IMG/VR virus record: IMGVR_UViG_3300014208_000031 | Coordinates: 32,001 to 96,000 of that record | Source: a virus | DNA: 64,000 bases | Reading direction: 5' to 3' (one strand) | Shown: positions 3 through 20,116 of the stretch, piece by piece | Numbering within the stretch: the stretch's first letter is position 1 | How the letters are laid out: each line of letters starts with the position of its first letter | Translations under genes and position numbers: made by a program | The notes under the pieces: generated by a model | What the model saw: only the letters and a program-made list of their open reading frames with translations | Told to the model about the DNA's origin: nothing | The model's database searches: none

Positions 3-1211
3 ATATATAAGAATAATAAATTTTTAGCCTTTAGTTCGGCAACATATCAATTTGAATTTTTATATCAAATGTATAAGAATTATAAAAAATCTATTCTTGA
101 TCCAAAGCCAGACCAGTTTGCTTCTTATGGTTTATTTCAGATGAGTCATGAAGCCGCGCCGGAAGGATTATTAAATAAAGCTTCTACAGAAAATGCTAAA
201 AATTCTCTTTCTTCAATGGAATTTCAAAAAGAATATTGCGGTCAATTTCCGGCGGACTCAGATAGCTATTTTAAGATGTCTAAAATGGAAGATGCAACCG
301 TACCATCAGGCGAAGACCCATCTATTGAGATAGTAGGAGAGAAAAATGGTAAATATTTGGTTTCTATTGACCCCAACAGTATGAACGACGCGACCTCAAG
401 CGATCATTTTGCGATTTCTGTATTTAAGTTAAACATGGAAGACAATACAACTGTTTTGGTTAATCAGTTTGCCGCATGTGAGCTAAATATCATAGATTAT
501 GTTTGGTATTTTTCATATATTCTAGAAAATTTTAATGTTGTTATGGTGGTACTAGATGAAGCTGGTGGCGGGACTTTTATAAATGTTTGTAACGAATCCA
601 TTCAATTTAAAGAAAAGAATTTAAGGTTAGAATTTTTTAGTGCAGATTTTGATGTTGATCCTAAAGAATATGTCAAAGAATTAAATAGGGCTAGACGAGA
701 CTATAACCTAACCAGTAAAAAGATTTGCTATTCTCAATATTTTCTTAATCCATTTAAATTAGCCGCCAACGAGCATTTAAAATATTGTATTGAATATAAG
801 AAAATGCTTTTTGCTTCAAAACCACATGAGATTAAAGAGGAAAAAATGTTGAAAACTCATATTCCAAATTTTGATAAACTTAAATTTATATCTGGAGAAG
901 ACTTTGATCAAAAAATGTCTAACGATGATATGCAAAAAATTAGAAGACAGGATTTTATAGACCATCAAGTATTTTTAATGAAAGATGTAAAATGTCAATG
1001 TGCTCTTATAGAATTAAGACCAGAAGGAAACAGTATTAAACTTGAATTACCATCAAATATTCGTCGTTTGCGTGGCATTAATATGGTGCGTCGCGATTTG
1101 TGGACGAGCCTATTTTTAGGAAATTATATGGCTAAGAGATATTTTGATATGATGTCCACGGACGACAGATTCAACTATAATTCCAACTGGACTCCTTCAA
1201 TCGTAGGTTAA
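3..1211 (+). CDS. terL: Terminase large subunit, C-terminal part (5' end outside window)
   Basis: Frame is open from position 3 (LAFSSA coupling-motif-like). FQKEYCGQF linker, then RNase H-like nuclease motifs VSIDP..DHFA, VLDEAGGG and a C-terminal RRDLWTSL; directly upstream of portal. Confidence 0.85.
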   Translation: MYKNNKFLAFSSATYQFEFLYQMYKNYKKSILDPKPDQFASYGLFQMSHEAAPEGLLNKASTENAKNSLSSMEFQKEYCGQFPADSDSYFKMSKMEDATVPSGEDPSIEIVGEKNGKYLVSIDPNSMNDATSSDHFAISVFKLNMEDNTTVLVNQFAACELNIIDYVWYFSYILENFNVVMVVLDEAGGGTFINVCNESIQFKEKNLRLEFFSADFDVDPKEYVKELNRARRDYNLTSKKICYSQYFLNPFKLAANEHLKYCIEYKKMLFASKPHEIKEEKMLKTHIPNFDKLKFISGEDFDQKMSNDDMQKIRRQDFIDHQVFLMKDVKCQCALIELRPEGNSIKLELPSNIRRLRGINMVRRDLWTSLFLGNYMAKRYFDMMSTDDRFNYNSNWTPSIVG

Positions 1212-3248: not shown

Positions 3249-3499
3249 TGAATAAATTCCAACCAATTACTCCTAATCATCATATACATAAATTTCATAC
3301 TTGTGTTAAATTACCATTTTTAAAAGATGGATACCAAAGAATTTTAGATAAAATAAGGTACGGTCGTGCGGACTTATTATCAGTTTCAGAGTTTAATGGA
3401 TTAAAAGAGTATTTCGTTGAAATAACCTATATAAACGAATCTAAAAATAAAGCTTTGGAATTAGATAGGATAAATAAAAATAATTTAGCTAAGTTATAA
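3248..3499 (+). CDS. Hypothetical protein
   Basis: TAATG overlap with portal stop; fills the gap before the next gene. Confidence 0.5.
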   Translation: MNKFQPITPNHHIHKFHTCVKLPFLKDGYQRILDKIRYGRADLLSVSEFNGLKEYFVEITYINESKNKALELDRINKNNLAKL

Positions 3500-3502
3500 T
3501 TT

Positions 3503-5029
3503 ATGGCCGATAACCCTTTCAATATTGCGTTAAAACAACTTAGATCAGAAGAAATTTCTGGTTATTTAGTTTCAGTGTTAAATAATAATTTTACTGGACT
3601 AGCTAACTCTTATCTAGCCGGGGCTAATATTGCTCATCTCACTGGAATAGAAACTTTTACAGAACAAAAAACCTTTGTTGAAAATCCTAATGTTCCATAT
3701 TCAGGGGCTACAGGTCAAGCGCCTAGCCGATTATACGTAGATTATTCTGGCCTTCAACTTCAACTTCAGCTAAACACTTTAGTTAATCTAATGCATATTA
3801 GCGGGTCAGAATATGTAAGCGGGGAAAAAATATTTAATAAAATTTTAATAAACTCCGGAAGATTTACTGGAGTATGTGAGGTTCCTTATCCGGCCAATAA
3901 TAGTGGGGCAATTAGCTTAGAGTATCTTAATAATCAAATAGGAATATTAAATGGCGATTCTTTCGTTAAAACTAGCGGAGATCAAGTTGTTAGTGGAATA
4001 AAAAGTTTTTTTAATGGGGGGTCGGTATATTTGCCTACGGCCACGCAACCATCTGGCGGGGTTCCACTTTCTCAATTAACTAGTACTGGAACTCATATTT
4101 TAAATGTTCTAGCTGCCGCCGATACTAGTTTACAAAACCAAATAACAGCAATAACTCTAACTGGTTTGGCAAATATAACAGGGTTTGCTGGAGTAGCTGC
4201 TATAAATGGCGTATCTGGTTTTATTTTCACGCAAGGACGGGGTACTATCACCACCACTCAAAACGGAAATATACTAAGTATTAGCGGACATAGTTTTCAG
4301 CCTTATACTGGTGCATTTTTAGGTCATGTTAATGTTCTTAGTGGTGTAGATAGACAGTTTATTTCGTATGGTAATTCATATGCAGCAGTTCCATACGTGT
4401 TTACCCAATTAGAAAGTCCATCTGGAAATCCTCAATTACCATATTATGTTTCTGGAAGATCATCTAATGGATTTAATGTTATTTACTCTGGAACGGTAAA
4501 TCATAGTGGTTATGCTATTAGTTATTTTGGCTGGACCGGTTCTGGGTCAGTTATAAATGTAATACAAGGGCCACAGGGAGTATCTGGTTTGTCCGGGGCA
4601 AGTATTGTAGGTCCAGAAGGACCAGCGGGCGTATTTATTAACAGCGGAACAATAACTGGTAATTTCTATACATCTTCATATTTTCTAGATATTGTATACA
4701 CAGGAGTCGATTTGGTTAATTCATTCGTTTTTCGTCCAACGGTTATTACTGGGTGGCAAATTGCCTGCGGAACTACAGGGCGCGGCGGAGCGCATTTAAA
4801 TAGCGGATCAAGTGGCATTGTTTTACAAAGAGAACTTACGGGAAGTATAAATAAAATTGATACTTCTAATAACTCTACATTTATGGGCGGGTTTTCCTTA
4901 AATTCGGGACAGATATATAACTCCGGCTCTTATTTGTTTAATATACCCGCCTATAATAGGATTTCCATAAATATTTTAAGTGGGCTTTCTGGTTTATCCA
5001 ATCTAACTATTGGCCTGGCTGGATATTAA
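3503..5029 (+). CDS. Fibre-like virion protein, S/T-G rich
   Basis: Fibre repeats (TGIETFTEQKTF, SGSEYVSGEKIF, SGDQVVSGIKSF), short collagen-like GPQG..GPEGPAG, about 40 SG/TG dipeptides. Confidence 0.6.
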   Translation: MADNPFNIALKQLRSEEISGYLVSVLNNNFTGLANSYLAGANIAHLTGIETFTEQKTFVENPNVPYSGATGQAPSRLYVDYSGLQLQLQLNTLVNLMHISGSEYVSGEKIFNKILINSGRFTGVCEVPYPANNSGAISLEYLNNQIGILNGDSFVKTSGDQVVSGIKSFFNGGSVYLPTATQPSGGVPLSQLTSTGTHILNVLAAADTSLQNQITAITLTGLANITGFAGVAAINGVSGFIFTQGRGTITTTQNGNILSISGHSFQPYTGAFLGHVNVLSGVDRQFISYGNSYAAVPYVFTQLESPSGNPQLPYYVSGRSSNGFNVIYSGTVNHSGYAISYFGWTGSGSVINVIQGPQGVSGLSGASIVGPEGPAGVFINSGTITGNFYTSSYFLDIVYTGVDLVNSFVFRPTVITGWQIACGTTGRGGAHLNSGSSGIVLQRELTGSINKIDTSNNSTFMGGFSLNSGQIYNSGSYLFNIPAYNRISINILSGLSGLSNLTIGLAGY

Positions 5030-5596: not shown

Positions 5597-5927
5597 CATC
5601 TGTTTTATATCTTTAGTATTATTTTTATTATTTGATACAAATGTTATTGCAGATTATTGTAAATTTTTAAAGTTAAATCCACCTCATTTTAAAGAGTATC
5701 TAGAGATAGAAAAGAATGGCGGCAGCGCTCACTATTTAAAGTTTGTTAGAGGTGTTTATCATAATAACTTTTTTATTAAATTAATTTCTTGTTCAACATG
5801 CTTGTCTGTTTGGCTATCTTTAATTTTATCTTTAATTTCTTTTAATCTTTTAAATTATCCGATAATTAACGCGGGCGGGCTTTTAACATATTTCCTTTTA
5901 AAACTTTTATACAAATTTTCTAGTTAA
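5565..5927 (+). CDS. Membrane protein with CxxC-W motif (DUF1360-like)
   Basis: N- and C-terminal hydrophobic helices; KLISCSTCLSVW. Confidence 0.55.
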   Translation: MVVFIMLLLSSICFISLVLFLLFDTNVIADYCKFLKLNPPHFKEYLEIEKNGGSAHYLKFVRGVYHNNFFIKLISCSTCLSVWLSLILSLISFNLLNYPIINAGGLLTYFLLKLLYKFSS

Positions 5928-5961
5928 AGTATATATTAGAATAAGCAGTTAAAATAAAATT

Positions 5962-6396
5962 ATGAATGAAAATAAAAATATAGATAACCAATCAAATCTA
6001 ACGACCCAAAGATCAGCGACAGCGGAGGAAGGCGCGATGCCTGCACGGCGGGCGGGCCAAGTGGAGGCGGAAGCAGGCAGCGTGCCTGACGTAGCTGTTC
6101 GCTGCATCGCTTGGTTAGGCGATTTGTGGAGGGATTGGAAAAAGATATTGTGCGTATCTGGCGGACTATTTCTTACCGCCTTCCTGAGTTTTGGTATCTA
6201 CGCTTGGCTTTGGTATGGGATCGACAGTTATATCTTTCGTCTTTGGGTTGTTGTTGATTACGGGATTGGATATGTTGGTGCCGGTATCGTTCTGTGTAGT
6301 CTTTGGCGGCTTCATAAGAGTTTGGCAGCTAACAATACACGATGGAACGCCGAGTATGATCGTGACTACGGTGAGAGCCGTAATGACAAAAGTTAA
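5962..6396 (+). CDS. ORF starting in phage DNA and reading through attC into the cassette antisense strand; status uncertain
   Basis: Preceded by AAAGTATATA (5926) and an A-rich leader. Codons 12-53 are the attC; the rest overlaps a - strand ORF. Confidence 0.25.
   Translation: MNENKNIDNQSNLTTQRSATAEEGAMPARRAGQVEAEAGSVPDVAVRCIAWLGDLWRDWKKILCVSGGLFLTAFLSFGIYAWLWYGIDSYIFRLWVVVDYGIGYVGAGIVLCSLWRLHKSLAANNTRWNAEYDRDYGESRNDKS
5996..6120 (-). mobile_element. Integron attC site, downstream of the cassette genes
   Basis: On the - strand: R'' GCCTAAC, spacer CAAGC, left arm GATGCAGCGAACAGC ... right arm GCTGTCGCTGATC, R' GTTAGAT. Two extra unpaired bases in the left arm. Confidence 0.88.
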
Positions 6397-6582
6397 GCAC
6401 CGAATGGATTCGTTAAGTTTAACGCTTTTTTCCGCGTAAGTTCCCGCTCGCTTATCTAGTTCCGTTAATAATTGTGCTAATGCGTCAAGAATTAGTAGCA
6501 GTCCGGGGTTCTTCCCGGACGGATCATTCTTCTTGTTAGCTTCTATTATTTTCAATAAGTCTTCGGGGTCCATTTGCGGCAT
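6166..6582 (-). CDS. Cassette ORF3, single-pass membrane protein
   Basis: Helical N-terminus, TM segment LTFVITALTVVTIILGV, low-complexity tail; abuts ORF2 and ends just before attC. Confidence 0.65.
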   Translation of the reverse strand: MPQMDPEDLLKIIEANKKNDPSGKNPGLLLILDALAQLLTELDKRAGTYAEKSVKLNESIRCLTFVITALTVVTIILGVPSCIVSCQTLMKPPKTTQNDTGTNISNPVINNNPKTKDITVDPIPKPSVDTKTQEGGKK

Positions 6583-7149
6583 TTAGTGTTTGCTGCACTG
6601 ATAGAAAATAAGTGGAATAACGAAGACGATAACAAAAGCCCATCTGAGAACGCCGAGATGAGATGTTGCCTTCTGTTGTTCTTCGACAACCTGCTTTAGC
6701 AGTTGGGATTCGCTGCTTGAAGAGAATTGCCATTTGTCGTTCTGGCAAAACTTCTTGACGGGTTTCCATTCTCCAAGGTCTTTGTGGTAGAAAAGTGTGT
6801 CGGAAGTTATGGAGCCCGCGTTCCACATTGAACGAATTTGGGCGGGTGCAAATGGGCCGCTTTGCTGGCCGTCCTTGCTTAAATAGCATTCAGCGTTTGG
6901 GTGCGGACTACTTTCTGCCTCCTCAATTGAATAATTGCTGACATACGGCGCGAACTGAGGGAACTTTTTAATCGGAATATAACTACTTCCTGACCAGAAA
7001 CCGCATTCTCGGCATAGAGCTTTAACCGTGATGCGGGTTCGTTCTTTACACAAAGCAATAATGAAATCCTCCGACTCATCTTGGATGATTTCAACCCCAT
7101 CTACTGAAATGGCATACGTCTTTGGCTTCGGATTTTTAGGTGCGGCCAT
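6583..7149 (-). CDS. Cassette ORF2, GYF_2 (DUF4339)-domain membrane protein
   Basis: YLSKDGQQSGPF...IRSMWNAGSITSDTLFY.....EWKPV is the GYF_2 pattern; C-terminal TM. Start at ATG 7149 is likely (frame open to 7179). Confidence 0.75.
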   Translation of the reverse strand: MAAPKNPKPKTYAISVDGVEIIQDESEDFIIALCKERTRITVKALCRECGFWSGSSYIPIKKFPQFAPYVSNYSIEEAESSPHPNAECYLSKDGQQSGPFAPAQIRSMWNAGSITSDTLFYHKDLGEWKPVKKFCQNDKWQFSSSSESQLLKQVVEEQQKATSHLGVLRWAFVIVFVIPLIFYQCSKH

Positions 7150-7185
7150 AAAAAGTGTAAAGGAATAGTATGAAAACAAACGATA

Positions 7186-7410
7186 CTACTTCATCAAACG
7201 CGATAGCTGGCTTGAAATCTCTTTTAGATTCTTTGACTCATTTGCGATGTTTTTGGACAGAGCAGTTAGCTCTGCACGAACTTCGGGATTCAAGTTTGGC
7301 AAATGCTCGGCAACCAGCGCATACAAACCAGAGTGAGAAGTAATTAGGTCTGAAAGATACGTCCCGAGCTTAGATGTAAAATCGAGCAAAACTTGTTCGT
7401 TGTCAGTCAT
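7186..7410 (-). CDS. Cassette ORF1, small helical protein
   Basis: First ORF after the cassette start, with an A-rich leader. Confidence 0.6.
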   Translation of the reverse strand: MTDNEQVLLDFTSKLGTYLSDLITSHSGLYALVAEHLPNLNPEVRAELTALSKNIANESKNLKEISSQLSRLMK

Positions 7411-7471
7411 AGTGTTGGTTTTTTTGTTTCTTAATTTACGTATGGAAATTTAGGGGAGACTTGGGGGAATA

Positions 7472-7560
7472 GCCTAACTCTTTGAACTGAGCGACGGCGT
7501 GAATAGATATAGCAAAAACCACCGATGTAAAGCGCCGTTCGCTCTAGTGAATGGTTAGAT
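7472..7560 (-). mobile_element. Integron attC site, phage-resident recipient
   Basis: On the - strand: R'' ATCTAAC, CATTC, ACTAGAGCGAACGGC ... GCCGTCGCTCAGT, R' GTTAGGC. Extra bases in the left arm. Confidence 0.85.
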
Positions 7561-7568
7561 TAATTTTT

Positions 7569-7597
7569 ATTATAAATTTTTAAATATTAAGTGTAAA
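7569..7597 (-). promoter_or_regulatory. Sigma70-like promoter pointing into attC and the cassette
   Basis: TTTACA (7597-7592), 17 bp spacer, TATAAT (7574-7569). Confidence 0.5.
7590..7597 (+). promoter_or_regulatory. Late-promoter motif upstream of the lysis cluster
   Basis: AGTGTAAA ending 7 nt before ATG 7605. Confidence 0.65.
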
Positions 7598-7604
7598 TAT
7601 AACT

Positions 7605-8317: not shown

Positions 8318-8806
8318 ATGGAAACTACAGAAAAAACAGAAACTACTTCTAGTGAATCATCGGTAAAAATTCCCGAAAATAAAGGAAATCTTCAAGTTCA
8401 CAAAGACTTAAAAACATTTTTATTAAGTAAGAAATTATGGATGAGTGTTTTTGGTTTAAGTGTTTTATGGTTAGCTTACTGGAAACAAGTGAATTACCTT
8501 TATTCATTTAGTGCTTATCCACAAGATATGGCCGCTGTTTTGGTTCCAGCCTATATCGGATTAACTCGCGATTTCATGGTAGCATTTACTGGTGTAGTAA
8601 TGAGTTTTTTGGGTATTGAAGGTTTTGTTAGTTGGAAGCATGGTACTGAAAGTGTTATTAGTCAGGCAACTAGCTTTGTGCAGGAAAAGATTAAGGAAGA
8701 TAGAACTGAGAAAATAGATATAACCGAAAATAAAACTATTACTTATAATAATACTAAAGAAGATGATTATACTCTAGAGGAGCCGACCGAAAAATATGAA
8801 TATTAA
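8318..8806 (+). CDS. Holin-like membrane protein
   Basis: SKKLW.. start, 2-3 hydrophobic segments, charged C-tail; overlaps endolysin start. Confidence 0.55.
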   Translation: METTEKTETTSSESSVKIPENKGNLQVHKDLKTFLLSKKLWMSVFGLSVLWLAYWKQVNYLYSFSAYPQDMAAVLVPAYIGLTRDFMVAFTGVVMSFLGIEGFVSWKHGTESVISQATSFVQEKIKEDRTEKIDITENKTITYNNTKEDDYTLEEPTEKYEY

Positions 8807-9407
8807 TCAAAAAGGTAAGGATTTTATAATAAATTGGGAAACTGGTGGAAAAAATTACTATGAGAAAGTTTATAAGTCAACTTTTATTTGGCCCGAAGGG
8901 GCATCTGGTCCAACTATAGGATTTGGAATTGATTGTGCGTATTATAGTAAAAATGAACTTAAAGAAATATTCTCTCCCTATGTATCCGCCGAAGAATTAA
9001 GTTTAATTTTAGGGGCGCCTGGGAAATCTGGATCGGCGGGACAAGCATATACTAAAAAACTAAAAGGTATTATTATTACTTGGGATGAAGCCAAAGAAAT
9101 TTTTGATAAATTTACTTTACCTAAATTTACTTCTTTAGCTGAGAAGGTATTTCCAGGTGTTAATGATCTATGCGAAAATGCTCAGGCAGCAATTCTTTCT
9201 TTAGTTTTTAATCGGGGGACGGCTTTAGGTGGACAAAGACGTATAGAAATGGCAAATATTAAAAAAATGATTTCAACTAAAAATTATAAGTCTATAGCTA
9301 CAGAATTTCGTAAAATGAAAAGATTGTGGAAAAATAATCCTAATTCAGATAGTGATTTAACGGATAGGCGAGAATCAGAAGCGAAGTTAGTAGAAAGTTG
9401 TATTTAA
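8796..9407 (+). CDS. Endolysin, lysozyme/pesticin-like muramidase
   Basis: FIINWE..WPEGASGPTIGFGID, AILSLVFNRG, L..RRE.EA.L. Confidence 0.85.
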   Translation: MNINQKGKDFIINWETGGKNYYEKVYKSTFIWPEGASGPTIGFGIDCAYYSKNELKEIFSPYVSAEELSLILGAPGKSGSAGQAYTKKLKGIIITWDEAKEIFDKFTLPKFTSLAEKVFPGVNDLCENAQAAILSLVFNRGTALGGQRRIEMANIKKMISTKNYKSIATEFRKMKRLWKNNPNSDSDLTDRRESEAKLVESCI

Positions 9408-9411
9408 TAAT

Positions 9412-9651
9412 ATGTTTCAAAAATTTCTAATAGATAATGCAATTAAAATATTTACTACTTTTGTAAGTTTGTTAGTGGCGGCAGGTATTTGGATCGGTCG
9501 GAGCGAAATGGAAGTTTCACATTTTAAAAAAGACCTAGAAGAACAAAAAATTGTTATTAAAAATTATGACCGTTTGATTAACCAACATGAATTTATGGTT
9601 CTTAATCATGATTACAGATTAGATAGATTAGATAATTTGTCAAGAAAATAA
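9412..9651 (+). CDS. Small TM plus coiled-coil protein, lysis-associated
   Basis: N-terminal TM followed by a heptad pattern. Confidence 0.5.
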   Translation: MFQKFLIDNAIKIFTTFVSLLVAAGIWIGRSEMEVSHFKKDLEEQKIVIKNYDRLINQHEFMVLNHDYRLDRLDNLSRK

Positions 9652-9696
9652 TTATTTAAAAATGCATTTTTCTCTGTAACAAGTGTAAATATAAGA

Positions 9697-10794
9697 GTGA
9701 ATATTAGAAAAATTGGATTAACTGTTGTGGAAGAATGTGGACACGGATGGAAAATATGTATTGATTGTGAGGAATTAAAATCATTAGATAATTATAGACC
9801 ATCTGCAAGAAATCAACTTATGCGATTAAAGTATTGCTCTATATGTTTAGAAAAACGTATTTCAAAAGCACAAAAAATAGCCAGAGACAATAGGCGCGGA
9901 TTTTGTGTTTTAGATGGTTACAAATATTGTGGTAGATGTTCTGAAATTAAAAACTTAGACTATTTTAGCGCGTGTAGTGCTCATGAAGACAATAAAAACA
10001 TTTATTGTAAGGGGTGTCTATCTGATATTCGGAAAGAAAATATAGATGTTATTAGAGGTCAACAAAGACAAAGATACAGAAAAGACATAACAGAATCGCG
10101 ACGAAAGAATAATGAATATAAACATAAAATTTCCTCTACTAAGCCCGCGCCAATAGATAAAAAATGTTCTATCTGTCAAGAAACTAAACTTATTAAAGAT
10201 TTTTATAAATGTAAAATGCGGCCCGACGGATATGATGTTAGGTGTAAGAAATGTGAACAAGCTAGAAAAGTAGATTTTCATTCAAAAAATAAAGAAAAAT
10301 TAAACTTAAAAAGTAGAAAATATCAAAAAGAAAACAAACAAAAATTGAACGATAAAATTAAAAATGATCCAGGTAAAAGTTTGGGTCGAAGACTTAGAAG
10401 TAGAATTTGGCACGCTCTTAAAAGAAACTCTGAAATCAAAGAAGAAAGAACTAGAGAATTAACTGGTTGTAATATAGAATTTTTACGAAAACATTTGGAA
10501 TATAAATTTCAATTAAGATATAAACATGAATTAGATTGGGATAAATTTATTAAGACGGCTGATTATGAAGTTGACCATATAATTCCTTGCGAAGCTTTTG
10601 ATTTGCACAATAAAGAGGCTCAAAAATTTTGCTTTCATTATTCTAATTTAGAAATCTTGTTAGCTGATGAAAATTACGATAAATCTGATTTCTTATTTGG
10701 TATAAGGGCGCGGCATATGGAAGAAAAATTAAACGGATCAGAAGACTGGCTCAAACTAAAAGATTGGAATCAAAATATAATTAAGTGTAAATAA
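9697..10794 (+). CDS. Free-standing HNH-type homing endonuclease with CxxC repeats
   Basis: Three CxxC..K...F/Y..CxxC repeats, TGCNIEFLRKHLE, YEVDHIIP, FHYSNL..L....N. GTG start. Confidence 0.8.
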   Translation: MNIRKIGLTVVEECGHGWKICIDCEELKSLDNYRPSARNQLMRLKYCSICLEKRISKAQKIARDNRRGFCVLDGYKYCGRCSEIKNLDYFSACSAHEDNKNIYCKGCLSDIRKENIDVIRGQQRQRYRKDITESRRKNNEYKHKISSTKPAPIDKKCSICQETKLIKDFYKCKMRPDGYDVRCKKCEQARKVDFHSKNKEKLNLKSRKYQKENKQKLNDKIKNDPGKSLGRRLRSRIWHALKRNSEIKEERTRELTGCNIEFLRKHLEYKFQLRYKHELDWDKFIKTADYEVDHIIPCEAFDLHNKEAQKFCFHYSNLEILLADENYDKSDFLFGIRARHMEEKLNGSEDWLKLKDWNQNIIKCK

Positions 10795-10797
10795 AAC

Positions 10798-12591
10798 ATG
10801 GACATTTCTAAATTTAAGTATCGTGCCTCATTTTCCTCTGTAATTAAAACAATAATTCCGGCGGAATACGATAAGTTTTTAGCTACTGCAAGTTTAAAGT
10901 CTTTACATGGCGTATTCCCGCCCGGACTAAATCCAGAAGATAGTCCTGATTTATTATATGTTGTAGCTAATGGGGCCGTTGGAAATCTTTGTAATAAAAA
11001 TGCGGACTGCATATCTAATGCCGATATTGTTAAGATTGCTCCATTTTCTATAAATAAATATCTAACCGTTGAACATAAAAGAACTGAGGGGGCGGTTGGA
11101 GCTATATCTAACTTTGGATTTTCTAAATATGGGTCTAATGAATTAATGACAGCAGAAGAAGCTATAGCATCAAATGATCCTGTGAATTGGGTTGTCGGCG
11201 GATTCATTTGGAAAATTCTTGATGAAAATTTAGCTAATTTAGTTATAGAATCTAGTGATGAAAATTCATTAAGGAGTAATACGGTGTCTTATTCGTGGGA
11301 AGTCCTTTTTTCAGATTATCATATTATGGTTGGTAGTCAAAATTTAAGTGAAGCCAAAATTATTACCGATAAAGACGAGATAGAAAAATTAAATCCATGT
11401 CTTAGAGCAAATAATGGTTCCGGTTTTAATCAAACCAAAGAACCTATCTATCGTTTAATTGTTGGTGAAATGCTTCCAGTTGGATTCTCTCTGACGAAAA
11501 ATCCGGCGGCCCATGTACAGGGAGTTTCTGTTTTAGAAGATAAGCCTACCCCGAAACAACAAGAAGAAATAATTATAAATTTAAAAGCTAATGAAAATTT
11601 AGTAACTTGCGCCGCATGTAATAAACCTTTTGATTATAATAGTGTTAGCGAAAGTTCAATGGGTGCGGTTCATTGTCCAAATTGTGATTGTACTTTAGAT
11701 CAAGAAGGAAAAGTTTTAAAAGCCTCGGATTCACAAACTAATATTATAGAGTCTTTAACTATAGAATTAGCCGTAGCGAAAGAAAAATTAGATAAATTTG
11801 AACAAAATGATAAAAATATTTCACTTTCTCAAAAAAATAGTGTAAATGATAATATCAAGAAAAATCCTGATAATGATTTAACGTCAAAAAACAAAATAAA
11901 ATCAAACAAAATGATCAAACTAAAATTTAACGATAGTGATAAAGAAGTTCTAGAAACCGCGGCTTCTACCGATGTGTATGAAATTGCTAAAGAACTTAAT
12001 AAGAAAATGACTGAGTATTCCGCCGAGCTTGATGTAAAAGCCGCCGAAGCTAAAACCGCGCAGGAAGCCTCCGCCAAACTTAAAGAAGATAGCGCCGCGT
12101 TAGCTGCTGATCTTGAAAAAGTTAAATTAGAACTAAAAAATCTTAATGAAGTCCGCGCACAAGAAAAAGTCCAAGCTGATTTTAGTGTTCGTATGGCCGA
12201 CCTCAATGAGAAATTTGAACTGGACGCTGATAAATCCAAATCCATCGCCGCGGACATTCGTGGTCTCGACGATGAAAGTTTCGCTTCGTGGCTTGCTAAA
12301 ATGCAGCCGTTCTTAGTTGCTAAGAAATTTGTTCCGTTTGAAAAGAAAGGCGATAAGGTTGACGATTCTGAGCCTGATGAAGATGGTGATGACGAGGAAA
12401 TGAAAAAAGAGAAGAAAGCTAAGGCTAAAAAAGAATGTAAGGCTTCAATCCTCGAACAAATTGCCGATCTAAAACCTTTTGGCGAAAAGATTGTTAATAA
12501 AGTCGCCGAAGGAACAAAATCGGTGGCAGACTTATTTGCTGAAGCTTTCGCAGACCTAAGCGAAGATAAAGAAAAAAATAAAGCTAAATAA
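10798..12591 (+). CDS. Prohead protease-scaffold fusion
   Basis: NKNAD, LTVEH, VSYSWE and GFSLTKNPA protease-like motifs, a Zn ribbon, and a C-terminal coiled coil; two genes upstream of the capsid gene. Confidence 0.7.
   Translation: MDISKFKYRASFSSVIKTIIPAEYDKFLATASLKSLHGVFPPGLNPEDSPDLLYVVANGAVGNLCNKNADCISNADIVKIAPFSINKYLTVEHKRTEGAVGAISNFGFSKYGSNELMTAEEAIASNDPVNWVVGGFIWKILDENLANLVIESSDENSLRSNTVSYSWEVLFSDYHIMVGSQNLSEAKIITDKDEIEKLNPCLRANNGSGFNQTKEPIYRLIVGEMLPVGFSLTKNPAAHVQGVSVLEDKPTPKQQEEIIINLKANENLVTCAACNKPFDYNSVSESSMGAVHCPNCDCTLDQEGKVLKASDSQTNIIESLTIELAVAKEKLDKFEQNDKNISLSQKNSVNDNIKKNPDNDLTSKNKIKSNKMIKLKFNDSDKEVLETAASTDVYEIAKELNKKMTEYSAELDVKAAEAKTAQEASAKLKEDSAALAADLEKVKLELKNLNEVRAQEKVQADFSVRMADLNEKFELDADKSKSIAADIRGLDDESFASWLAKMQPFLVAKKFVPFEKKGDKVDDSEPDEDGDDEEMKKEKKAKAKKECKASILEQIADLKPFGEKIVNKVAEGTKSVADLFAEAFADLSEDKEKNKAK
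11819..11846 (+). promoter_or_regulatory. Internal bipartite late promoter TTTCAC-N14-AGTGTAAA
   Basis: Same architecture as at 12616, 16605, 23790 and 26301. Confidence 0.7.
11911..12591 (+). CDS. Scaffolding protein from an in-frame internal start (226 aa)
   Basis: In-frame ATG after an internal promoter and A-rich leader; coiled coil; codon usage shifts at this point. Confidence 0.6.
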   Translation: MIKLKFNDSDKEVLETAASTDVYEIAKELNKKMTEYSAELDVKAAEAKTAQEASAKLKEDSAALAADLEKVKLELKNLNEVRAQEKVQADFSVRMADLNEKFELDADKSKSIAADIRGLDDESFASWLAKMQPFLVAKKFVPFEKKGDKVDDSEPDEDGDDEEMKKEKKAKAKKECKASILEQIADLKPFGEKIVNKVAEGTKSVADLFAEAFADLSEDKEKNKAK

Positions 12592-12615
12592 TTTTAAAAT
12601 AATAATTTAAATAAA

Positions 12616-12643
12616 TTTCATAAAAACAAAAAATTAGTGTAAT
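12616..12643 (+). promoter_or_regulatory. Bipartite late promoter for decoration and capsid genes
   Basis: TTTCAT-N14-AGTGTAAT. Confidence 0.7.
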
Positions 12644-12721
12644 ATAAATATAACTAGTAATAACTAACAAAATTTTTAAACAAAAAAATCAAAGATCAAC
12701 AAATAAGAAAAAAACAATAAT

Positions 12722-13312
12722 ATGGCTACCCAAACAAATCTAACTAAGATCAGAGTCTACGAGGAACATGAAGTAATCAATCTGTATTCTACAATTGAAG
12801 GCGACCTCCCTAAAGGTGCAATTCTTGAATATGTTACTGCTGACCCCGATAATCATAACGGTTTTGGAGTGTCCTTTGGGAATGTTCCTAGTTATGCGAT
12901 TTCTAAAGATTATGTAGTTAATTGGAAGGTTCAGGCTGCGCCCGCCTATTCTAAGAAAATTGCCGGTATTCTTCTCGACACCGTTGTAACTAACCTAACT
13001 GATCCTTGGACTCTTGATGCTCGTTTTGCCGATCCCGCTAAACTCGCCGAAAAACAACTAGTTCCTTCTGGCCGCGCAATCCGATTCGTTTCTCGTGGAT
13101 ATTTTGAAGTTAGTGGTATTGATATGAGTTCTGGCTCGGCTGGCCCCGGCCCCGGTTCAGGTGTTTATCTTTCTCATTCTGGTAATGGTACTATTGCGGT
13201 GGGAAATCCCGCTGGTGACATTGGTGATCTTCGCCCTCGCATTGGAACTTGGATGACATCCACCGGAGCAAACGGTTCAGCAACCTTTAAACTATCAGTT
13301 CCTAATAACTAA
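12722..13312 (+). CDS. Capsid decoration/cement protein
   Basis: Between scaffold and MCP; beta-rich with GILL..GRAIRFVSRG..G..VYL..G.I...IG pattern. Confidence 0.65.
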   Translation: MATQTNLTKIRVYEEHEVINLYSTIEGDLPKGAILEYVTADPDNHNGFGVSFGNVPSYAISKDYVVNWKVQAAPAYSKKIAGILLDTVVTNLTDPWTLDARFADPAKLAEKQLVPSGRAIRFVSRGYFEVSGIDMSSGSAGPGPGSGVYLSHSGNGTIAVGNPAGDIGDLRPRIGTWMTSTGANGSATFKLSVPNN

Positions 13313-13354
13313 GTTTTAACAAATTAGACAATAATTAAATAGAATAAAAATAAT

Positions 13355-14452
13355 ATGAGAAAAAAACAATTTACAATTGAACGTAATCCCAAAAGAGTTG
13401 AAATGATGAAACTCATGGCGAGTGATGATATGAATGTAGCTTATCAAGCACAAACTGCTATGGCTAAGTTCATGCGTGAATTCGTCCAACGTTTATTTGA
13501 TCAGAAAAGCACTATTTCCGGTATTTTCCGTAAGGAATATATGGCGAAAGGCGCTCCACAAACTATTTTGGTTGATCCTTACGAGGGATACGCCGAAAAA
13601 GATTTTCATGTGTGGTCAATTACAAAACCCGGCGGACTAACTTCACAAACCGTTGAAGGTCTTAGTGAATATCCTTTTGGTTATTTTAATTTAGATTCTG
13701 CTTTATATTTTGAGAAAGATTATATTGAACAGGCGCGACTTGATCTCTTAGCCAAGGGAATAAATCGTGTTGTCCAAGAGTTTGTAGCTATAGAAGAACG
13801 TTTGGGTTGGACTATGATTCTAACCGCTCTAGCCGCCGGAACTAACACAAATGGTCAAAACCATGTTATTAATTCTAATACTGCTGGTGTGTTTCAGATT
13901 GATGATTTCACCCGTCTTAAAACTTTAATTACTAGATTATATCAATCTTTTGCTTCTGGATCAATTGCCGGAGATTACGGTTTAACTGATTTATACATGT
14001 CGCCCGAACGTATGGCCGATCTTACTAGAATGTCATATAATCCTATGAATACTTATGGTATTCCTAACAGTGACGAGTCCACTTCGTTAGGTTTACCTGA
14101 TAAGATTCGCGAAGAGATTTTCCGCGCTTCAGGAACTAAAGAAATGTGGGGAGTTGAGTTTCATGAACTTCGTGAATTAGGTTTGGGTCGCAAACTAAAT
14201 GTTATTTTTGATGGAGTATCAACAAATACTCCCACTTACAATAATGCCACCCAAGACCTAATGATAGGTATGGATTTAAGTCAAGATGTAGCAATCAGCC
14301 CAGTTGAATCTGGCGACAGTGGAGAAACCGTGAAAGTAGCTGTAGATAATCAGTACTTTTATAATCGTCAAAATAAAGCCGGGTGGTTTTTTACACGTCG
14401 AAATGGTTATGCGGTAATTGATAACCGCTGGTTATGTGGACTAATTGTTTAA
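13355..14452 (+). CDS. Major capsid protein
   Basis: 365 aa, position in the head module, HK97-fold-like motifs (DLYMSPE, WGVEFHEL, GWF....GYAVID), followed by a terminator. Confidence 0.8.
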   Translation: MRKKQFTIERNPKRVEMMKLMASDDMNVAYQAQTAMAKFMREFVQRLFDQKSTISGIFRKEYMAKGAPQTILVDPYEGYAEKDFHVWSITKPGGLTSQTVEGLSEYPFGYFNLDSALYFEKDYIEQARLDLLAKGINRVVQEFVAIEERLGWTMILTALAAGTNTNGQNHVINSNTAGVFQIDDFTRLKTLITRLYQSFASGSIAGDYGLTDLYMSPERMADLTRMSYNPMNTYGIPNSDESTSLGLPDKIREEIFRASGTKEMWGVEFHELRELGLGRKLNVIFDGVSTNTPTYNNATQDLMIGMDLSQDVAISPVESGDSGETVKVAVDNQYFYNRQNKAGWFFTRRNGYAVIDNRWLCGLIV

Positions 14453-14475
14453 TTAGTAAATAATACTAACAAATT

Positions 14476-14500
14476 AACGCTCTTAATTGAGTGTTTTTTT
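14476..14500 (+). terminator. Rho-independent terminator after MCP
   Basis: AACGCTC-TTAATT-GAGTGTT followed by a T run. Confidence 0.7.
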
Positions 14501-14564
14501 GTGAGTAAAAATGTCTGGAAAAGGATATAAAGTTAAGGATACTTGATTGATATAAAATAAAACT

Positions 14565-16286
14565 ATGATACAAAAAGAAAAAACATTAGAAAAGTTTGGG
14601 GTCAATACGGATAATCTTCTAGACGGAAGCCATAAAAGAATCATTATAAAATGTGATTATTGCGGGGATGATACCGAAAATACCTATAAAAATTATATGA
14701 TAAGTAAAAAAAATACAGTAATAAATAAAGATTGTTGTATGAAATGTCGTGGATTAAAAGCAAAAGAGTGTAACGCCGCGCGAGATAGAACTGAAGCTGT
14801 ACAAAAGGGTAACAAACAAAGAGAGGAAACTTGTTTAGAAAAATATGGTAAAAAACATGCCAATCAGACACTAGAAATAAGAGATAAAATGGCAGAATCT
14901 CTTCGTAATAGAACACCGGAAGAAAAAGAAATTAGCAATATAAAACGCAAACAAACTTTTTTAGACAAGTATGGTAAAACTTTTGGGGAAATGTTAAAGG
15001 ATATATTTCTAGAAAAATATGGAGTTAATTATTGTCCACTTGCTCATTCGCCAGATGCTAATAAAAAACGAGAAGACACTATGTTAAAACTATATGGAGT
15101 AAAAAATATTTTTGAACTCCCGGAAATTCAAGAACAGATTAAAAAAACCTGTCTGGAGAGATATGGTTTTGAATATCATATGCAAAGAGATGAATTTAGA
15201 GAGTTGATGTCTAAAGAAGGATTTGGTTGGAATACTGAAGAATCCAGAAAAAAAATTAAAGAGACTAACTTAAAAACGTATGGATTTGAATACGCCACAC
15301 AAAACAAAGAAATTCAAGATAAAATAATTAAAACTAAAATAGAACGTGGATTTATTAACTTTGTTGAAGGCAAAACAGATCAACAATGGGCGGACGAAAC
15401 AGGAATTTCCAGAACTTATGCTAATGTATTATTAAGAAAATATGGTTCTCAGGCATTATTAAATTTTGAACGCGGTAGAACAAGTATAGAAACAATTATT
15501 AAATATATTTTAGACAATAATAATATTAAATATAAAGAACAGGAGATTTTTGTCAATGATGATAAAACTGGACATAAGCGCGCGGATTTTGTAATTGAGG
15601 ATACCAATCTAATTATTGAAGCAAATGGAACATTTTGGCATTCTGAAAACATAAGGGGTAAAACATATCATAAAGAGAAGAGAGAATTTTACTTAAAAGG
15701 GGGATACAATTGTTTATTTTTTAACGAAGATGAAATAATGTTTAAGTCACAAATTGTTGAATCAATTATTTTAAATAAATTAGGATTGACCAAAAATAAA
15801 ATAGCCGCTCGAAAGTGTCAGATTAGAGAAATTGAACCTTCAATATCTAGAGAATTTTATACAGAAAATCATTTAATGGGTAAAAGTTCTGGACGGACTT
15901 TCGGTTTATTCTATAAAGATAAATTAGTTTCTTGTATCCAATTAAGAAAAAAACAGGACGGTTATGAAATAGCAAGATTTTGTAATTTATTAAATTATAG
16001 TGTAATTGGAGGGTTTTCCAGATTATTGTCTTGTGCTGTCAAAGAACTCAACGCGAAAAAAATTATTACATTTATTGATTTAAGATACGGATCAGGAAAC
16101 TATTTACCAATTTTAGGGTTTGAGAAGCAGACGGAATATTTATCTTTTAGGTGGGTTGGTTATATTGAGACTTTTCATAGAATGCAGTTTCCCGGAAATA
16201 CAGGATTAGCAAAAGGTTACAAAAAAATATGGGACTGTGGACAGGCAAAATGGGTTAAATACATAAATTCAAAATCAAGTATATAG
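14565..16286 (+). CDS. Homing endonuclease, PD-(D/E)XK/Vsr-like, with TxLxKYG repeats
   Basis: Repeated TCLEKYG-type units; RADF...IIEANGTFWH; IAARKC..; C-terminal IWDCGQ. Confidence 0.75.
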   Translation: MIQKEKTLEKFGVNTDNLLDGSHKRIIIKCDYCGDDTENTYKNYMISKKNTVINKDCCMKCRGLKAKECNAARDRTEAVQKGNKQREETCLEKYGKKHANQTLEIRDKMAESLRNRTPEEKEISNIKRKQTFLDKYGKTFGEMLKDIFLEKYGVNYCPLAHSPDANKKREDTMLKLYGVKNIFELPEIQEQIKKTCLERYGFEYHMQRDEFRELMSKEGFGWNTEESRKKIKETNLKTYGFEYATQNKEIQDKIIKTKIERGFINFVEGKTDQQWADETGISRTYANVLLRKYGSQALLNFERGRTSIETIIKYILDNNNIKYKEQEIFVNDDKTGHKRADFVIEDTNLIIEANGTFWHSENIRGKTYHKEKREFYLKGGYNCLFFNEDEIMFKSQIVESIILNKLGLTKNKIAARKCQIREIEPSISREFYTENHLMGKSSGRTFGLFYKDKLVSCIQLRKKQDGYEIARFCNLLNYSVIGGFSRLLSCAVKELNAKKIITFIDLRYGSGNYLPILGFEKQTEYLSFRWVGYIETFHRMQFPGNTGLAKGYKKIWDCGQAKWVKYINSKSSI

Positions 16287-16302
16287 TATTAGAAACAACA
16301 AT

Positions 16303-16593
16303 ATGAAAACAAAAAAAATAAAAGTAGAGCCAATTACGAACGTAATCACCAATATTAAATCTATTGATGCTCTTTGGGGTATTAACACGTCTAAATATCG
16401 AGGAAAAGATTTGCAAGAATATACTAATTATATTAGTCAATTAACCAATTTTGGGCTAGAAAATCACGCAAGAGAATTAAATCTTACTTATTTACTTGAT
16501 CGCCAATCTATTATTGATGAATTAATTAAATTATACAAAAAAGACACAAATTCTCGAAATATCCCTAAAGATAAAAATATACAATCTATTTAG
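16303..16593 (+). CDS. Small helical protein, paralog of 18015-18266
   Basis: Shared Y...I..(L/M)....L..HA........R.S.I..LIK.(Y/F)K. Confidence 0.6.
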   Translation: MKTKKIKVEPITNVITNIKSIDALWGINTSKYRGKDLQEYTNYISQLTNFGLENHARELNLTYLLDRQSIIDELIKLYKKDTNSRNIPKDKNIQSI

Positions 16594-16604
16594 TTTAAAT
16601 AATT

Positions 16605-16632
16605 TTTCACTTTCTCCTAAAAATAGTGTAAA
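16605..16632 (+). promoter_or_regulatory. Bipartite late promoter
   Basis: TTTCAC-N14-AGTGTAAA. Confidence 0.7.
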
Positions 16633-16686
16633 GTATATTGACAATTTAACAAAAGCAATTAAAATAAATAGAAAGAATTAAACAAA

Positions 16687-16989
16687 ATGGCACAGAAAAA
16701 AGAATTTAGATGGTTATCGACCGCGCCAACTGGCTCTCCTACTGGTATATCCACGCTTTATGCCGATACGTCTGGTATATTAAAAGTGGTGCGTCCCGGC
16801 GGCGATGTAGTCACCGTTGGTGGAGTATTTCAAAATATATTATCAGGTAATTTTCCCGGACAGCTAGGCACTTTCGTTACCGGACTTCAACCGTCAGTAA
16901 CCGGAAGTCTTGGAAGCACTAAGACATTTTTTGTCGTAACTGGGCCGAGCGGCGGTTCATATGCTCTGCCCGCTTACGCGATAGTCTAA
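16687..16989 (+). CDS. Small virion or fibre-like protein
   Basis: Own promoter and terminator; APTGSPTG..LYA..G.LK and Y.LPAY fibre-type motifs. Confidence 0.55.
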   Translation: MAQKKEFRWLSTAPTGSPTGISTLYADTSGILKVVRPGGDVVTVGGVFQNILSGNFPGQLGTFVTGLQPSVTGSLGSTKTFFVVTGPSGGSYALPAYAIV

Positions 16990-17000
16990 TAAGATAAGTT

Positions 17001-17029
17001 AATCCAATATAGTCTATTGGATTTTCTTT
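17001..17029 (+). terminator. Rho-independent terminator
   Basis: AATCCAATA-TAGTC-TATTGGATT plus T-rich tail. Confidence 0.65.
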
Positions 17030-17058
17030 GATTATTTTTAAAAAATAAACACTATAAT

Positions 17059-17976
17059 ATGAATATCACCGAAACTAAATCAGTTGGTCAAAAATGGTCT
17101 GAAGAGGAAGTTGGATGGCTAAAACTAAATTATCCCATTAAGGGTGGAAATTACTGCGCTAATTATTTAGGGAGAAAGCCAAAAAGCATTATTAAGAAAA
17201 CTTCTTCTCTAAAACTACGAGTTAATCCAGATGTTACAAGCAAATTACAAAAAGAGTCTCATAGGGAAAGAAATAAAAAACGCATTTATTCGGTGAACCC
17301 TAAACAATTTTATAACATCCAAACTCCTGAAGTTGCTTATGTCTTGGGGCTTTTATGGGCAGATGGATGGATAATCAATAAACCATGTGGGCACACTGTA
17401 GCTTTAGCTTGTCAATTGAATGATTTTAATATGTTTAAACCTGTATTTGATAAAATAGGAACTTGGAAAACATACAATATAAATAGAAAAAACAGAAAAC
17501 CTGCTGGAGAATTTAAAATTAGCAACAAACCTTTAGTTCAATTCCTCATGGAAAATGACTATCTAGCGAAATCATCTTTATCTGCTTGTAAAATTCTATC
17601 TAGAATACCCGATAATTTGAAGCATATGTGGTTTAGAGGATTTTTAGATGGAGACGGGCATATTGGAAGAAAGGGTAAAATAATATCTTTTTGTAGTAGT
17701 TTTGAACAAGATTGGACTTTTTTACAGAAAATTTTAGATAAAAACGGTTTAACGTATAATATCCGAAGAAATGAGGTGATATGTAAGGATAATGGAAAAA
17801 TACATAGAAATTCTTATTTTGTTCTTCATGTTAGTTCTACGATGATTTTTGGAAATTTTATTTATAAAGACTATTTAGATAATCACATAGGTCTTCCTAG
17901 GAAATTTGAAATTTATTCTGAAATTAAAGATATTAAACCTAGAGATTATTTTCGGATATTTGATATAATTTTATAA
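17059..17976 (+). CDS. Free-standing LAGLIDADG homing endonuclease
   Basis: AYVLGLLWADG and FRGFLDGDG motifs. Confidence 0.85.
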   Translation: MNITETKSVGQKWSEEEVGWLKLNYPIKGGNYCANYLGRKPKSIIKKTSSLKLRVNPDVTSKLQKESHRERNKKRIYSVNPKQFYNIQTPEVAYVLGLLWADGWIINKPCGHTVALACQLNDFNMFKPVFDKIGTWKTYNINRKNRKPAGEFKISNKPLVQFLMENDYLAKSSLSACKILSRIPDNLKHMWFRGFLDGDGHIGRKGKIISFCSSFEQDWTFLQKILDKNGLTYNIRRNEVICKDNGKIHRNSYFVLHVSSTMIFGNFIYKDYLDNHIGLPRKFEIYSEIKDIKPRDYFRIFDIIL

Positions 17977-18014
17977 ATAGTGTAAAGGTCGGTAGTTACA
18001 AATATTATAAATCT

Positions 18015-18266
18015 ATGAAAAAATCTAAACTTAAACTAAATGAAATGAGTATTGCTAACGGCAAAGTATGGTTAGGAGACGAGATAGATGTGAATCACAA
18101 AACTAAACGGTCTTTGTCACTAGCTAGTTACGAAGAAAAAATAAATAAAATGAATTTACTTGATTTACAACATCATGCTGTAGAAAACCTTGTCCCTGTA
18201 AAAGAAAAACGTGAAAGCCTAATAGCTAGTTTAATCAAAGAGTTTAAAGTCCGCGGCGGACACTAA
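18015..18266 (+). CDS. Small helical protein, paralog of 16303-16593
   Basis: See paralog; preceded by AGTGTAAA at 17979. Confidence 0.6.
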   Translation: MKKSKLKLNEMSIANGKVWLGDEIDVNHKTKRSLSLASYEEKINKMNLLDLQHHAVENLVPVKEKRESLIASLIKEFKVRGGH

Positions 18267-18367
18267 ATTTAGTTACATTAAGTTTAATGTTTCTAGATAT
18301 AGAATCTTAGAAAAGTGTAAATTATACATTAGTCACAAATAATTAATATATTACATTTTAAACTTTT

Positions 18368-18709
18368 ATGAGTGTTCATTATGACTTGTCGGGAATTTCT
18401 CAGGGTTCAACCTACTCTTTAACTTTTAGGGCAGTCGATTCCGCCGGGGTTCCAGTTTCTTTATCTGGTTACTCAATCAGATCAACCATTAGAGAAAAAT
18501 ATTCTTCTACCACGGGAATAGCATCTTTTAATAGTTCTATAACTACCCCCAACTCTGGAATTTGTAATATAGCTTTAACGGCGTCCGGCGCGGCGGCTAT
18601 CGCGGCGGGAATATATTTATACTCTGTAGAAGTAGAAAATTATAGTACATTAGATGTAATTAAATTGTTAGATGGACATGCTTATGTCAATCCAGAAATT
18701 TTATATTAA
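18368..18709 (+). CDS. Ig-like (BppU N-terminal-like) structural protein
   Basis: QGSTY.LTF..D..G.PV.LSGY..R..IR..G.Y.Y.VE pattern. Confidence 0.6.
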   Translation: MSVHYDLSGISQGSTYSLTFRAVDSAGVPVSLSGYSIRSTIREKYSSTTGIASFNSSITTPNSGICNIALTASGAAAIAAGIYLYSVEVENYSTLDVIKLLDGHAYVNPEILY

Positions 18710-18718
18710 TTAATTTAA

Positions 18719-19666
18719 ATGCCTGAACCCGTAGATATAATAGTCATTGATTCGTCAATCCCTTCTGTTGTTGTACAGAATGATAGTATAAACATTGACA
18801 TTAATAACTCAATAGCTTTAAGTAATTATGTAGCAAAGGTGGAGTCGGGTCAATATTATAGTATTTATAATGTTAATAATTATTGTAATTCGGGAAATCT
18901 AAGTGGAGCCAGCGGGGTTTTACAAAATCAACTTAATAGTATATCAGGAATTGCTTTTGTACAGCTCACAGGGATAACTATTTCGGGGTCAAATGCGCTA
19001 GTTGATCTTGTAAAAATAACTGGAATCAATAATAATATTTCTATTAGCGGCAACACTATTGTTATTAGTGGTAATGATTTAAGTAATTATGCTGAATTAT
19101 CTTCTAGTAATATATTTAGTGGTTCTAATAGTTTTTATAGTTCTATTCAAATAACAAATAATGGGGCGGTGGGCGGGACACTAATTCTGCATGTTCCAGC
19201 GGGCTCACCGGCGGTTCCAAACCATAGTAAAATCCGAGCGGGTTATACGACGCAGCCAAGAACATTAACTACCCCGGACAAAGACGGATTGATCGCTGTT
19301 ATTTCTGATTTAAGTGGATATTACTTATCCGGTAATGGAGAATTATTAAGTGGAAATTTATTTCAGACGGGCGCAAATCTTTTTATAAATGATACTATTT
19401 TATCTGGTAAATTAATAAGTTTAAGTGGGGATATAACTAGAAAATACTCTACATATATTGGAAATGGAATTTCAACCGGCATAGTAGTTTCTCACGGACT
19501 AAACACTGATGATATAATTTGGAGTTGTAGAGCCACTGGACTAAGTGGAAATTATGATTTTGTTTATCCAACAGTTTTTAACAGCGGAGTAGGAAATTTA
19601 GTTTTTGGATTTGCATCGGGATTTACTCCACAAACCAATGAATATAAAGTTGTTGTAATAGGTTAA
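18719..19666 (+). CDS. Fibre-like structural protein
   Basis: SG-rich; N.F.G.N.F, RTLT.PDKDG and HGLNT.D...Y.VVVIG fibre motifs. Confidence 0.6.
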   Translation: MPEPVDIIVIDSSIPSVVVQNDSINIDINNSIALSNYVAKVESGQYYSIYNVNNYCNSGNLSGASGVLQNQLNSISGIAFVQLTGITISGSNALVDLVKITGINNNISISGNTIVISGNDLSNYAELSSSNIFSGSNSFYSSIQITNNGAVGGTLILHVPAGSPAVPNHSKIRAGYTTQPRTLTTPDKDGLIAVISDLSGYYLSGNGELLSGNLFQTGANLFINDTILSGKLISLSGDITRKYSTYIGNGISTGIVVSHGLNTDDIIWSCRATGLSGNYDFVYPTVFNSGVGNLVFGFASGFTPQTNEYKVVVIG

Positions 19667-19674
19667 TTAAAAAT

Positions 19675-20116
19675 ATGAGAATTTTAGATCAATTAATTGT
19701 AGGTAGATCGGGTTCAACAGCTAAACTTTTTGTTGAAATAGATGCTACAGGAACGCCCGGAGTAGTAATACGCGCGGCTGCTGGTCAAGTTGCTAATTTG
19801 TTAGATATACAAAATAGTAGTGGAGCCAGCCTACTTACTATAGATAAAGATGGTAAAATAACTAATGGTGTTATTACGGGCGGTTCTATAGATAATGTTA
19901 TTATCGGCGGGACGACTCCGGCGGCGGGGACGTTTACTACGCTATCATCGACAGGCTTTTCGTGGACTCCCGCCTCGCGGGAGTTGCGACTGGCACTCGC
20001 GTATCGTGACCGACGCGCTAACGCCAACGCTCGGCTCAACCGTAGCGAGCGGAGGAAGCGCCGATGTCGTCGTCCGCAGCAACGGAACCAACTGGATCGT
20101 CACCGAAATTCTATAG
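19675..20116 (+). pseudogene. Fibre-like gene with a frameshifted GC-rich 3' end (decay or sequence error)
   Basis: The fibre-type C-terminus IVTDALTPTLGSTVASGG..VRSNGTNWIV is out of frame with the N-terminus (IGGTTPAAGTFTTL). Confidence 0.55.

Follow-up and report, generated by a model that had tools for sequence, protein, structure and literature searches.

Genomic setting of the locus

The phage record under study is linear, 167,664 bp long, has a GC content of 33% and is complete by CheckV estimate; the window, which is the whole stretch of 64,000 nucleotides analysed here, comprises bases 32001-96000 of that record. Between two plus strand phage genes, both having orthologues in the relative L167 (Table 1), the window holds a block of three open reading frames on the minus strand enclosed by two attC sites, as was claimed in the first-pass annotation. 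The block is also GC-rich as described there, the inserted cassette having 45.5% GC against 28% in each flank and 33% in the genome. AT-rich phage DNA resumes just outside both sites, again in agreement with the earlier reading, and the outermost bases of the two attCs mark the exact limits of the foreign DNA. On its 5' side the insertion locus is preceded by an ERCC4 nuclease, a protein of 1,059 aa with a LAGLIDADG hit, and proteins of 655 aa and 508 aa. The 1,059-aa protein is probably the large terminase, and this putative terminase together with the ERCC4 nuclease upstream places the attC locus inside a packaging or morphogenesis gene block. Its match is to LAGLIDADG_3, and its gene occupies positions 3-1211 (+) and extends upstream of the window (15939-19118 in L001, another assembly of this phage). 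A relative encodes at the same position a Terminase_6N protein of 630 aa, and this comparison points to an intein or homing endonuclease within the large terminase.

Three further assemblies, L001, L002 and L003, showed identical junctions at 99.99% identity, so that with the record itself four assemblies are at hand, all of them bearing the cargo. Since these independent assemblies share its junctions, the attC/cassette locus is not an assembly chimera, a possibility that the first-pass annotation had asked to be checked. Every contig returned by exact-protein look-ups of the flanking genes also bears the cassette. A blastn comparison of the region with the phage collection yielded nothing, and no relatives emerged from single-protein and alignment-based searches of IMG/VR. 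A protein identical to the GYF protein of the cassette (P0001) is also present on a contig of 224,142 bp, and in view of this contig the 167.7-kb record may not cover the whole phage genome.

Two further observations concern the surroundings of the locus. A second GC-rich stretch, reaching 65% GC, lies before the window at 11,500-20,000 of the phage's own genome (L171); it contains a 473-aa GDSL-lipase-like ORF and gave no attC hits. Also, a copy of the motif AAAGTATATA is found at 5926-5935 (+), directly 3' of the 120-aa gene, with no start codon at the usual 7-nt distance, the next ATG being at 5962.

Table 1. Features of the cassette locus, in window positions, and of the attC loci of two related phages, in positions of their own records (last two rows)
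Feature	Position	Strand	Description
Flanking phage gene	5565-5927	+	120 aa; orthologue in L167 (44% identity)
Site A, the cassette's own attC, 125 nt	5996-6120	-	R'' GCCTAAC...G|TTAGAT; 64% GC; R1 E 4e-24
Inserted cassette, 1,476 bp	6002-7477	-	From TTAGGC to the G of the site A R' box
Cargo ORF 3, 138 aa	6166-6582	-	Homologue P0014
Cargo ORF 2, 188 aa	6583-7149	-	GYF_2 (PF14237, E 1e-12)
Cargo ORF 1, 74 aa	7186-7410	-	Orphan
Site B, resident phage attC, 89 nt	7472-7560	-	R'' ATCTAAC...G|TTAGGC; 46% GC; R1 E 1e-6
Sigma-70-like promoter, TTTACA-17 nt-TATAAT	7569-7597	-	Phage DNA; consensus match only
Flanking phage gene	7605-8303	+	232 aa; orthologue in L167 (35% identity, E 2e-33)
L147 (IMGVR_UViG_3300046778_000197)	3482-4045		Two attCs around a 90-aa ORF, the only two in the 51.7-kb record
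L162 (IMGVR_UViG_3300037264_002542)	8596-11887		Eight attCs, one truncated, 3' of a 1,261-aa gene

The two attC sites

Read on the plus strand, the heptamers that bound the two sites are ATCTAAC (5996-6002) and GTTAGGC (6114-6120) for site A, and GCCTAAC (7472-7478) and GTTAGAT (7554-7560) for site B, and 1,351 bp (about 1.35 kb) separate the sites. Both are imperfect palindromes that can fold, with R boxes pairing at five of seven positions as found and at all seven once the swap described below is reversed. Site A lies close to the consensus of the 124-nt Verrucomicrobial attC class, and site B is a divergent, AT-richer member of the same family with an AT-rich loop. In an attC the extrahelical, unmatched bases occur only in the R''-L'' arm and so define the strand. 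Each site has two single-base bulges, both in the 5' arm of the minus strand (R''-L'') and at the positions seen in the family consensus, which bears out the orientation that had been assigned from the extra bases in this arm.

The attC covariance-model check proposed for these sites was made with a custom-built model, R1, derived from 34 aligned complete sites. In the window R1 matched sites A and B only, both at full length and on the minus strand alone. Site A scored 102 bits, its 3' arm matching partly by construction as the seed motif of R1 was taken from it, and site B scored much lower at 33.6 bits; this value falls inside the 20-43 bit range of attCs lying beside intI and is thus typical of real array members. 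Nothing beyond the two sites was found by nhmmer in the whole record, and in a genome-wide scan for RYYYAAC...GTTRRRY motifs combined with folding they stood far above all else. Across 49 family members, in an alignment fitted to the covariance model, 90.6% of cells were paired and compensatory changes occurred in 21 of 27 pairs, while slid controls reached at most 41%. On these sequence grounds sites A and B are genuine attC sites of Verrucomicrobial type, and their recombination by IntI is predicted.

Distribution of the attC family in bacteria

The conserved 3' arm motif of site A was searched in one genome per species for 185,579 species. It was found at more than 120 genome loci, and Verrucomicrobiota account for 68 of 80 among the matches listed. 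An IntI scoring above the TIGR02249 cut-off was present in four of five genomes carrying the attC family. After the intI of L173 come, on the opposite strand, at least 11 co-oriented attCs with scores of 20-43 bits; four attCs of the family follow intI in L174, and in L133 too an array of the family adjoins intI. At the bacterial loci the R' box most often reads GTTAGGC (112 of 154) and the R'' box GCCTAAC (76 of 108), GTTAGAT being found only three times among the 154 R' boxes and ATCTAAC not at all among the 108 R'' boxes. The phage locus is thus like the sedentary chromosomal integrons of Verrucomicrobiota, for example that of L173, in its R'', L'', L' and R' arms, and homologues of the cargo genes as well as co-oriented cassettes are common to both. 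Unlike those integrons, it has neither intI nor attI, contains two attCs only, lies in DNA of 33% GC and runs antisense to its neighbours.

The cassette, its genes and its putative promoter

Relatives of two of the three cargo genes were found in bacterial cassettes. P0002, a homologue of ORF 2 with 64% identity, is encoded on a short metagenomic contig (L009) immediately 3' of an attC, a 127-nt palindrome both arms of which are close to site A, and the contig itself opens with the 3' half of another attC copy. P0014, the homologue of ORF 3 (137 aa, 42% identity, E 7e-22), forms a single-gene cassette with an attC on each side in L186 and is preceded by an attC in L187; the attCs around these homologues in L009, L186 and L187 scored 85-129 bits. 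The search for the cassette in bacterial integrons suggested by the first-pass annotation succeeded for homologues in attC arrays, and it failed for the sampled genomes of the phylum, as the ORF 2 GYF protein had no match at E <= 1e-10 in 401 Verrucomicrobiota genomes. The best donor match for the cargo reached only 64% identity.

All three ORFs and site A lie on the minus strand, and TTAGGC at 7477-7472 complements the GCCTAAC of site A. These features, together with the attC-flanked homologues, support the earlier claim about the nature of the insert, which by its sequence is an integron cassette. A typical integron cassette carries a single, usually promoterless ORF in about 0.5-1 kb. The 1,476 bp of the phage cassette comprise three ORFs, and since the homologues of ORF 2 and ORF 3 occur in separate bacterial cassettes, the cargo is a composite and not a textbook single-gene cassette.

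ORF 2 would be 198 aa long if started at the TTG at 7179. Its hydrophobic C-terminal stretch is predicted to be a membrane anchor, and a hydrophobic stretch of ORF 3 a transmembrane segment, both as read by eye. Against 1.84 billion representatives ORF 1 had itself as sole significant match, two others being weak and partial, and a family search gave no credible family for it. For the cargo as a whole, PADLOC, NCBIfam, PHROGs and ESM Atlas added no function beyond GYF_2; neither defence nor resistance families gave a hit, and nothing in the cargo bears the signature of a resistance gene or a toxin.

A plus strand ORF of 144 aa (5962-6396) begins in phage DNA, crosses site A and overlaps the 138-aa cargo gene in antisense orientation. 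It is listed in the gene calls for L001-L003, which omit the 138-aa ORF of the minus strand. We set it aside as probably spurious, since a conserved cassette homologue exists for the 138-aa ORF on the opposite strand. A 138-aa gene beside a GYF homologue in L004 was likewise compared and found to be unrelated to the 138-aa ORF of the phage.

The sigma-70-like promoter site (Table 1) ends 8 nt before site B, is directed into the cassette and agrees with the consensus at 11 of 12 positions. Sites of such strength number 11 in 335 kb (both strands counted), and the one beside site B alone has the 17-nt spacer. Judged from this consensus match and its placement just upstream of site B, the cargo is probably transcribed from it.

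Footprint of the proposed capture event

The R boxes of the two sites carry a record of how the cassette was inserted. Deletion of 6002-7477 restores ATCTAAC/GTTAGAT at the phage site and GCCTAAC/GTTAGGC on the excised cassette, each with a fully paired 7-bp R box, and we could thus reproduce in the sequence the reciprocally swapped cores which the first-pass annotation had pointed out. In other words, the last six bases of site B are now cassette-derived and those of site A come from the resident site; when they were exchanged between A and B, both sites regained full R box pairing and a lower folding energy. The outer boxes, which are rare variants, complement each other exactly, and so do the inner boxes. 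As GTTAGAT (3/154) and ATCTAAC (0/108) are so rare at the bacterial loci, the footprint of an insertion into a solitary attC is unlikely to have arisen by chance. A crossover by IntI at G|TT between a solitary attC and a circular cassette leaves reciprocally swapped R boxes, and the swap at this locus is the product expected of it, in line with what had been proposed.

An integrase gene was reported to be missing from the window. We extended the search to the whole 167.7-kb record and found no PF00589 tyrosine recombinase, which implies that the integrase acts in trans, although in view of the 224-kb contig there is a slight chance that the phage encodes an integrase beyond this record. The event would have started from a phage in which one attC (ATCTAAC...GTTAGAT), with no gene of its own, was already present. 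Its partner would have been a circular cassette (GCCTAAC...GTTAGGC) with three genes and its own attC, site A, and the integron integrase would have been supplied in trans, most likely by a Verrucomicrobial host. IntI would then cut the folded bottom strands (the plus strand here) between G and TT in the R' boxes of site B and the cassette attC, and by strand exchange site B would gain TTAGGC from the cassette and site A the TTAGAT of site B. We therefore consider it likely that the locus is a phage CALIN formed when a circular cassette was spliced by IntI, acting in trans, into a single attC which the phage already had.

Insertion of cassettes by IntI at secondary, non-att sites (PMC4889954; bioRxiv 10.1101/2022.09.11.507474) similarly puts a cassette outside an integron, with the integrase in trans and attCs lacking an integrase. 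Such an insertion has one attC and a bare G|TT upstream, whereas the phage locus has a complete attC at its upstream junction. This rules out a secondary-site origin of that junction and shows that the recombination partner was an attC. A tiny 'empty cassette' arising from GTTATAT near 7603 was also considered and was set aside as unsupported speculation.

Related phages with attC arrays

A search of IMG/VR with the attC 5' arm pattern gave 27 contigs, most of them of 50-65% GC; the contigs in this GC range may be bacterial or prophage fragments and were left out of the phage examples. Two AT-rich records, L147 (from a distantly related phage) and L162, have proteins that share 27-39% identity with those of this phage, and neither has a PF00589 recombinase. 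L147 reads TTCTAAC...GTTAGGT, the 90-aa ORF, then ACCTAAC...GTTAGAA, with outer boxes that are again rare. By its sequence L147 is an independent replicate of the reciprocal R-box swap, at a different genomic position. The array of L162, which brings the attC count in this phage group up to eight, has R' and R'' boxes that are complementary from one site to the next along the whole chain, its outer pair excepted. The attCs of this phage, L147 and L162 lie at three different loci, and no strong promoter-like site was found upstream of the arrays in L147 or L162.

The first cassette of L162 has no attC on its upstream side. An isolated TTCTAAC at 8399 is complementary to the terminal GTTAGAA, perhaps by chance. 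Arrays of the attC family are also seen at L166 (nine covariance-model hits at E <= 1e-20), L155, L156, L154 and other IMG/VR loci, on GC-rich contigs labelled viral; these may stem from integrons carried by prophages or be pieces of integrons wrongly classed as viral.

Alternative explanations and the landing-pad question

Palindromes are many in AT-rich genomes and the RYYYAAC and GTTRRRY boxes are short, and one may argue that the two sites are not derived from an integron and represent terminator-like phage palindromes, a chance motif or an assembly chimera. This is extremely improbable and effectively refuted by the R1 E-values and their strand specificity, by the lack of any further hit in the phage genome, by the linkage of the attC family to intI and by the agreement of four independent assemblies. 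It could also be that a segment of a host cassette array, comprising site B, site A and the intervening genes, entered the phage in one step through recombination that was either illegitimate or driven by homology, so that no exchange between two attCs took place in the phage. Off-target or illegitimate recombination has been proposed for phage CALINs by Qi et al. 2023 (PMC9892861), and the family does occur in long bacterial arrays. However, such a piece would hardly be expected to end exactly at the outer attC ends, as the foreign DNA does here, or to have outer R'' and R' boxes that are rare and yet perfectly complementary, a feature shared by L147; moreover, the 46% GC and AT-rich loop of site B against the 64% GC of site A suggest that the two had different residence times. 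We regard this en-bloc capture as improbable, and the insertion of a circular cassette into the resident attC as the better account of the locus.

A separate question is whether the phage keeps its attC as a landing pad for sampling cassettes, as the first-pass annotation had it. In that case the promoter and the solitary attC would be maintained as an integrase-less mini-integron into and out of which cassettes are repeatedly loaded and unloaded by the host IntI. The footprint proves that a solitary attC was once present and competent for recombination, the rare strong promoter-like site abuts this attC and points into the cargo, and two related AT-rich phages hold attC-flanked cassettes, in one of them with eight attCs. 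The idea of a kept site was not borne out by the comparisons that bear on it. L167 shares 44% identity with this phage in the 508-aa protein; there a mere 8 nt, without an attC, separate the orthologues of the two flanking genes, and the gene map of another relative, the P0009 contig, leaves a gap of 14 nt at the orthologous junction. The cargo is identical in all four assemblies, a pattern specific for site B occurred on no other viral contig, and neither an empty-site nor an alternative-cargo form was found among the four assemblies, the exact-protein matches and the viral contigs searched with this pattern. Also speaking against such a platform are the differing attC loci of the three phages and the arrays of L147 and L162 that have no strong promoter-like site upstream. 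A maintained acceptor platform is therefore doubtful.

Relation to known systems and significance

By the definition of Cury et al. 2016 (PMC4889954) a CALIN consists of two or more neighbouring attCs that lack an intI in their vicinity, and the phage locus, with two attCs and no PF00589 match in the record, falls under this definition. Of a complete integron it has a promoter-like site only, there being no tyrosine recombinase in the record. Qi et al. 2023 (PMC9892861) surveyed 10,705 NCBI phage genomes and found 17 CALINs, including some in virulent phages. They demonstrated that IntI1 can recombine attCs from phages, put forward the idea that phages serve as vectors of cassettes, and suggested that these CALINs arose by illegitimate recombination; text searches of their paper turned up neither Verrucomicrobia nor single attC sites nor attC x attC recombination. 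Like those CALINs, the present locus combines co-oriented attCs and cassette ORFs in a phage genome without intI. Unlike them, it has an R-box swap from which the event can be reconstructed, seen twice (in the window and in L147), and an attC type that indicates the phylum of the host. The clustering of attCs in phages and the role of phages as vectors have thus been reported already, and the locus adds a clear new example; its contribution lies in an attC x attC event that can be reconstructed in two phages, in an attC of Verrucomicrobial type and in a relative with an eight-site array. That this phage acts as a cassette vector, as the first-pass annotation proposed, is plausible, and the idea itself has been published for phage CALINs (PMC9892861).

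More generally, it may tentatively be proposed, although we hold it to be rather unlikely, that a group of AT-rich Verrucomicrobia phages use attC acceptors lacking an integrase, in the present phage combined with a sigma-70-type promoter, as minimal trans-acting integrons, which would be loaded from the integron pool of the host through its IntI, expressed during infection and carried between hosts, growing into arrays of eight or more cassettes as in L162. The locus provides natural evidence, at the level of sequence, for attC x attC capture inside a phage genome with no visible integrase, and so bears on the origin of phage CALINs, about which the earlier survey could only speculate. The attC type can place an uncultured phage with a host phylum, and a phage group whose members carry two, two and eight attCs is one in which cassette traffic between chromosomal integrons and phages could be measured.
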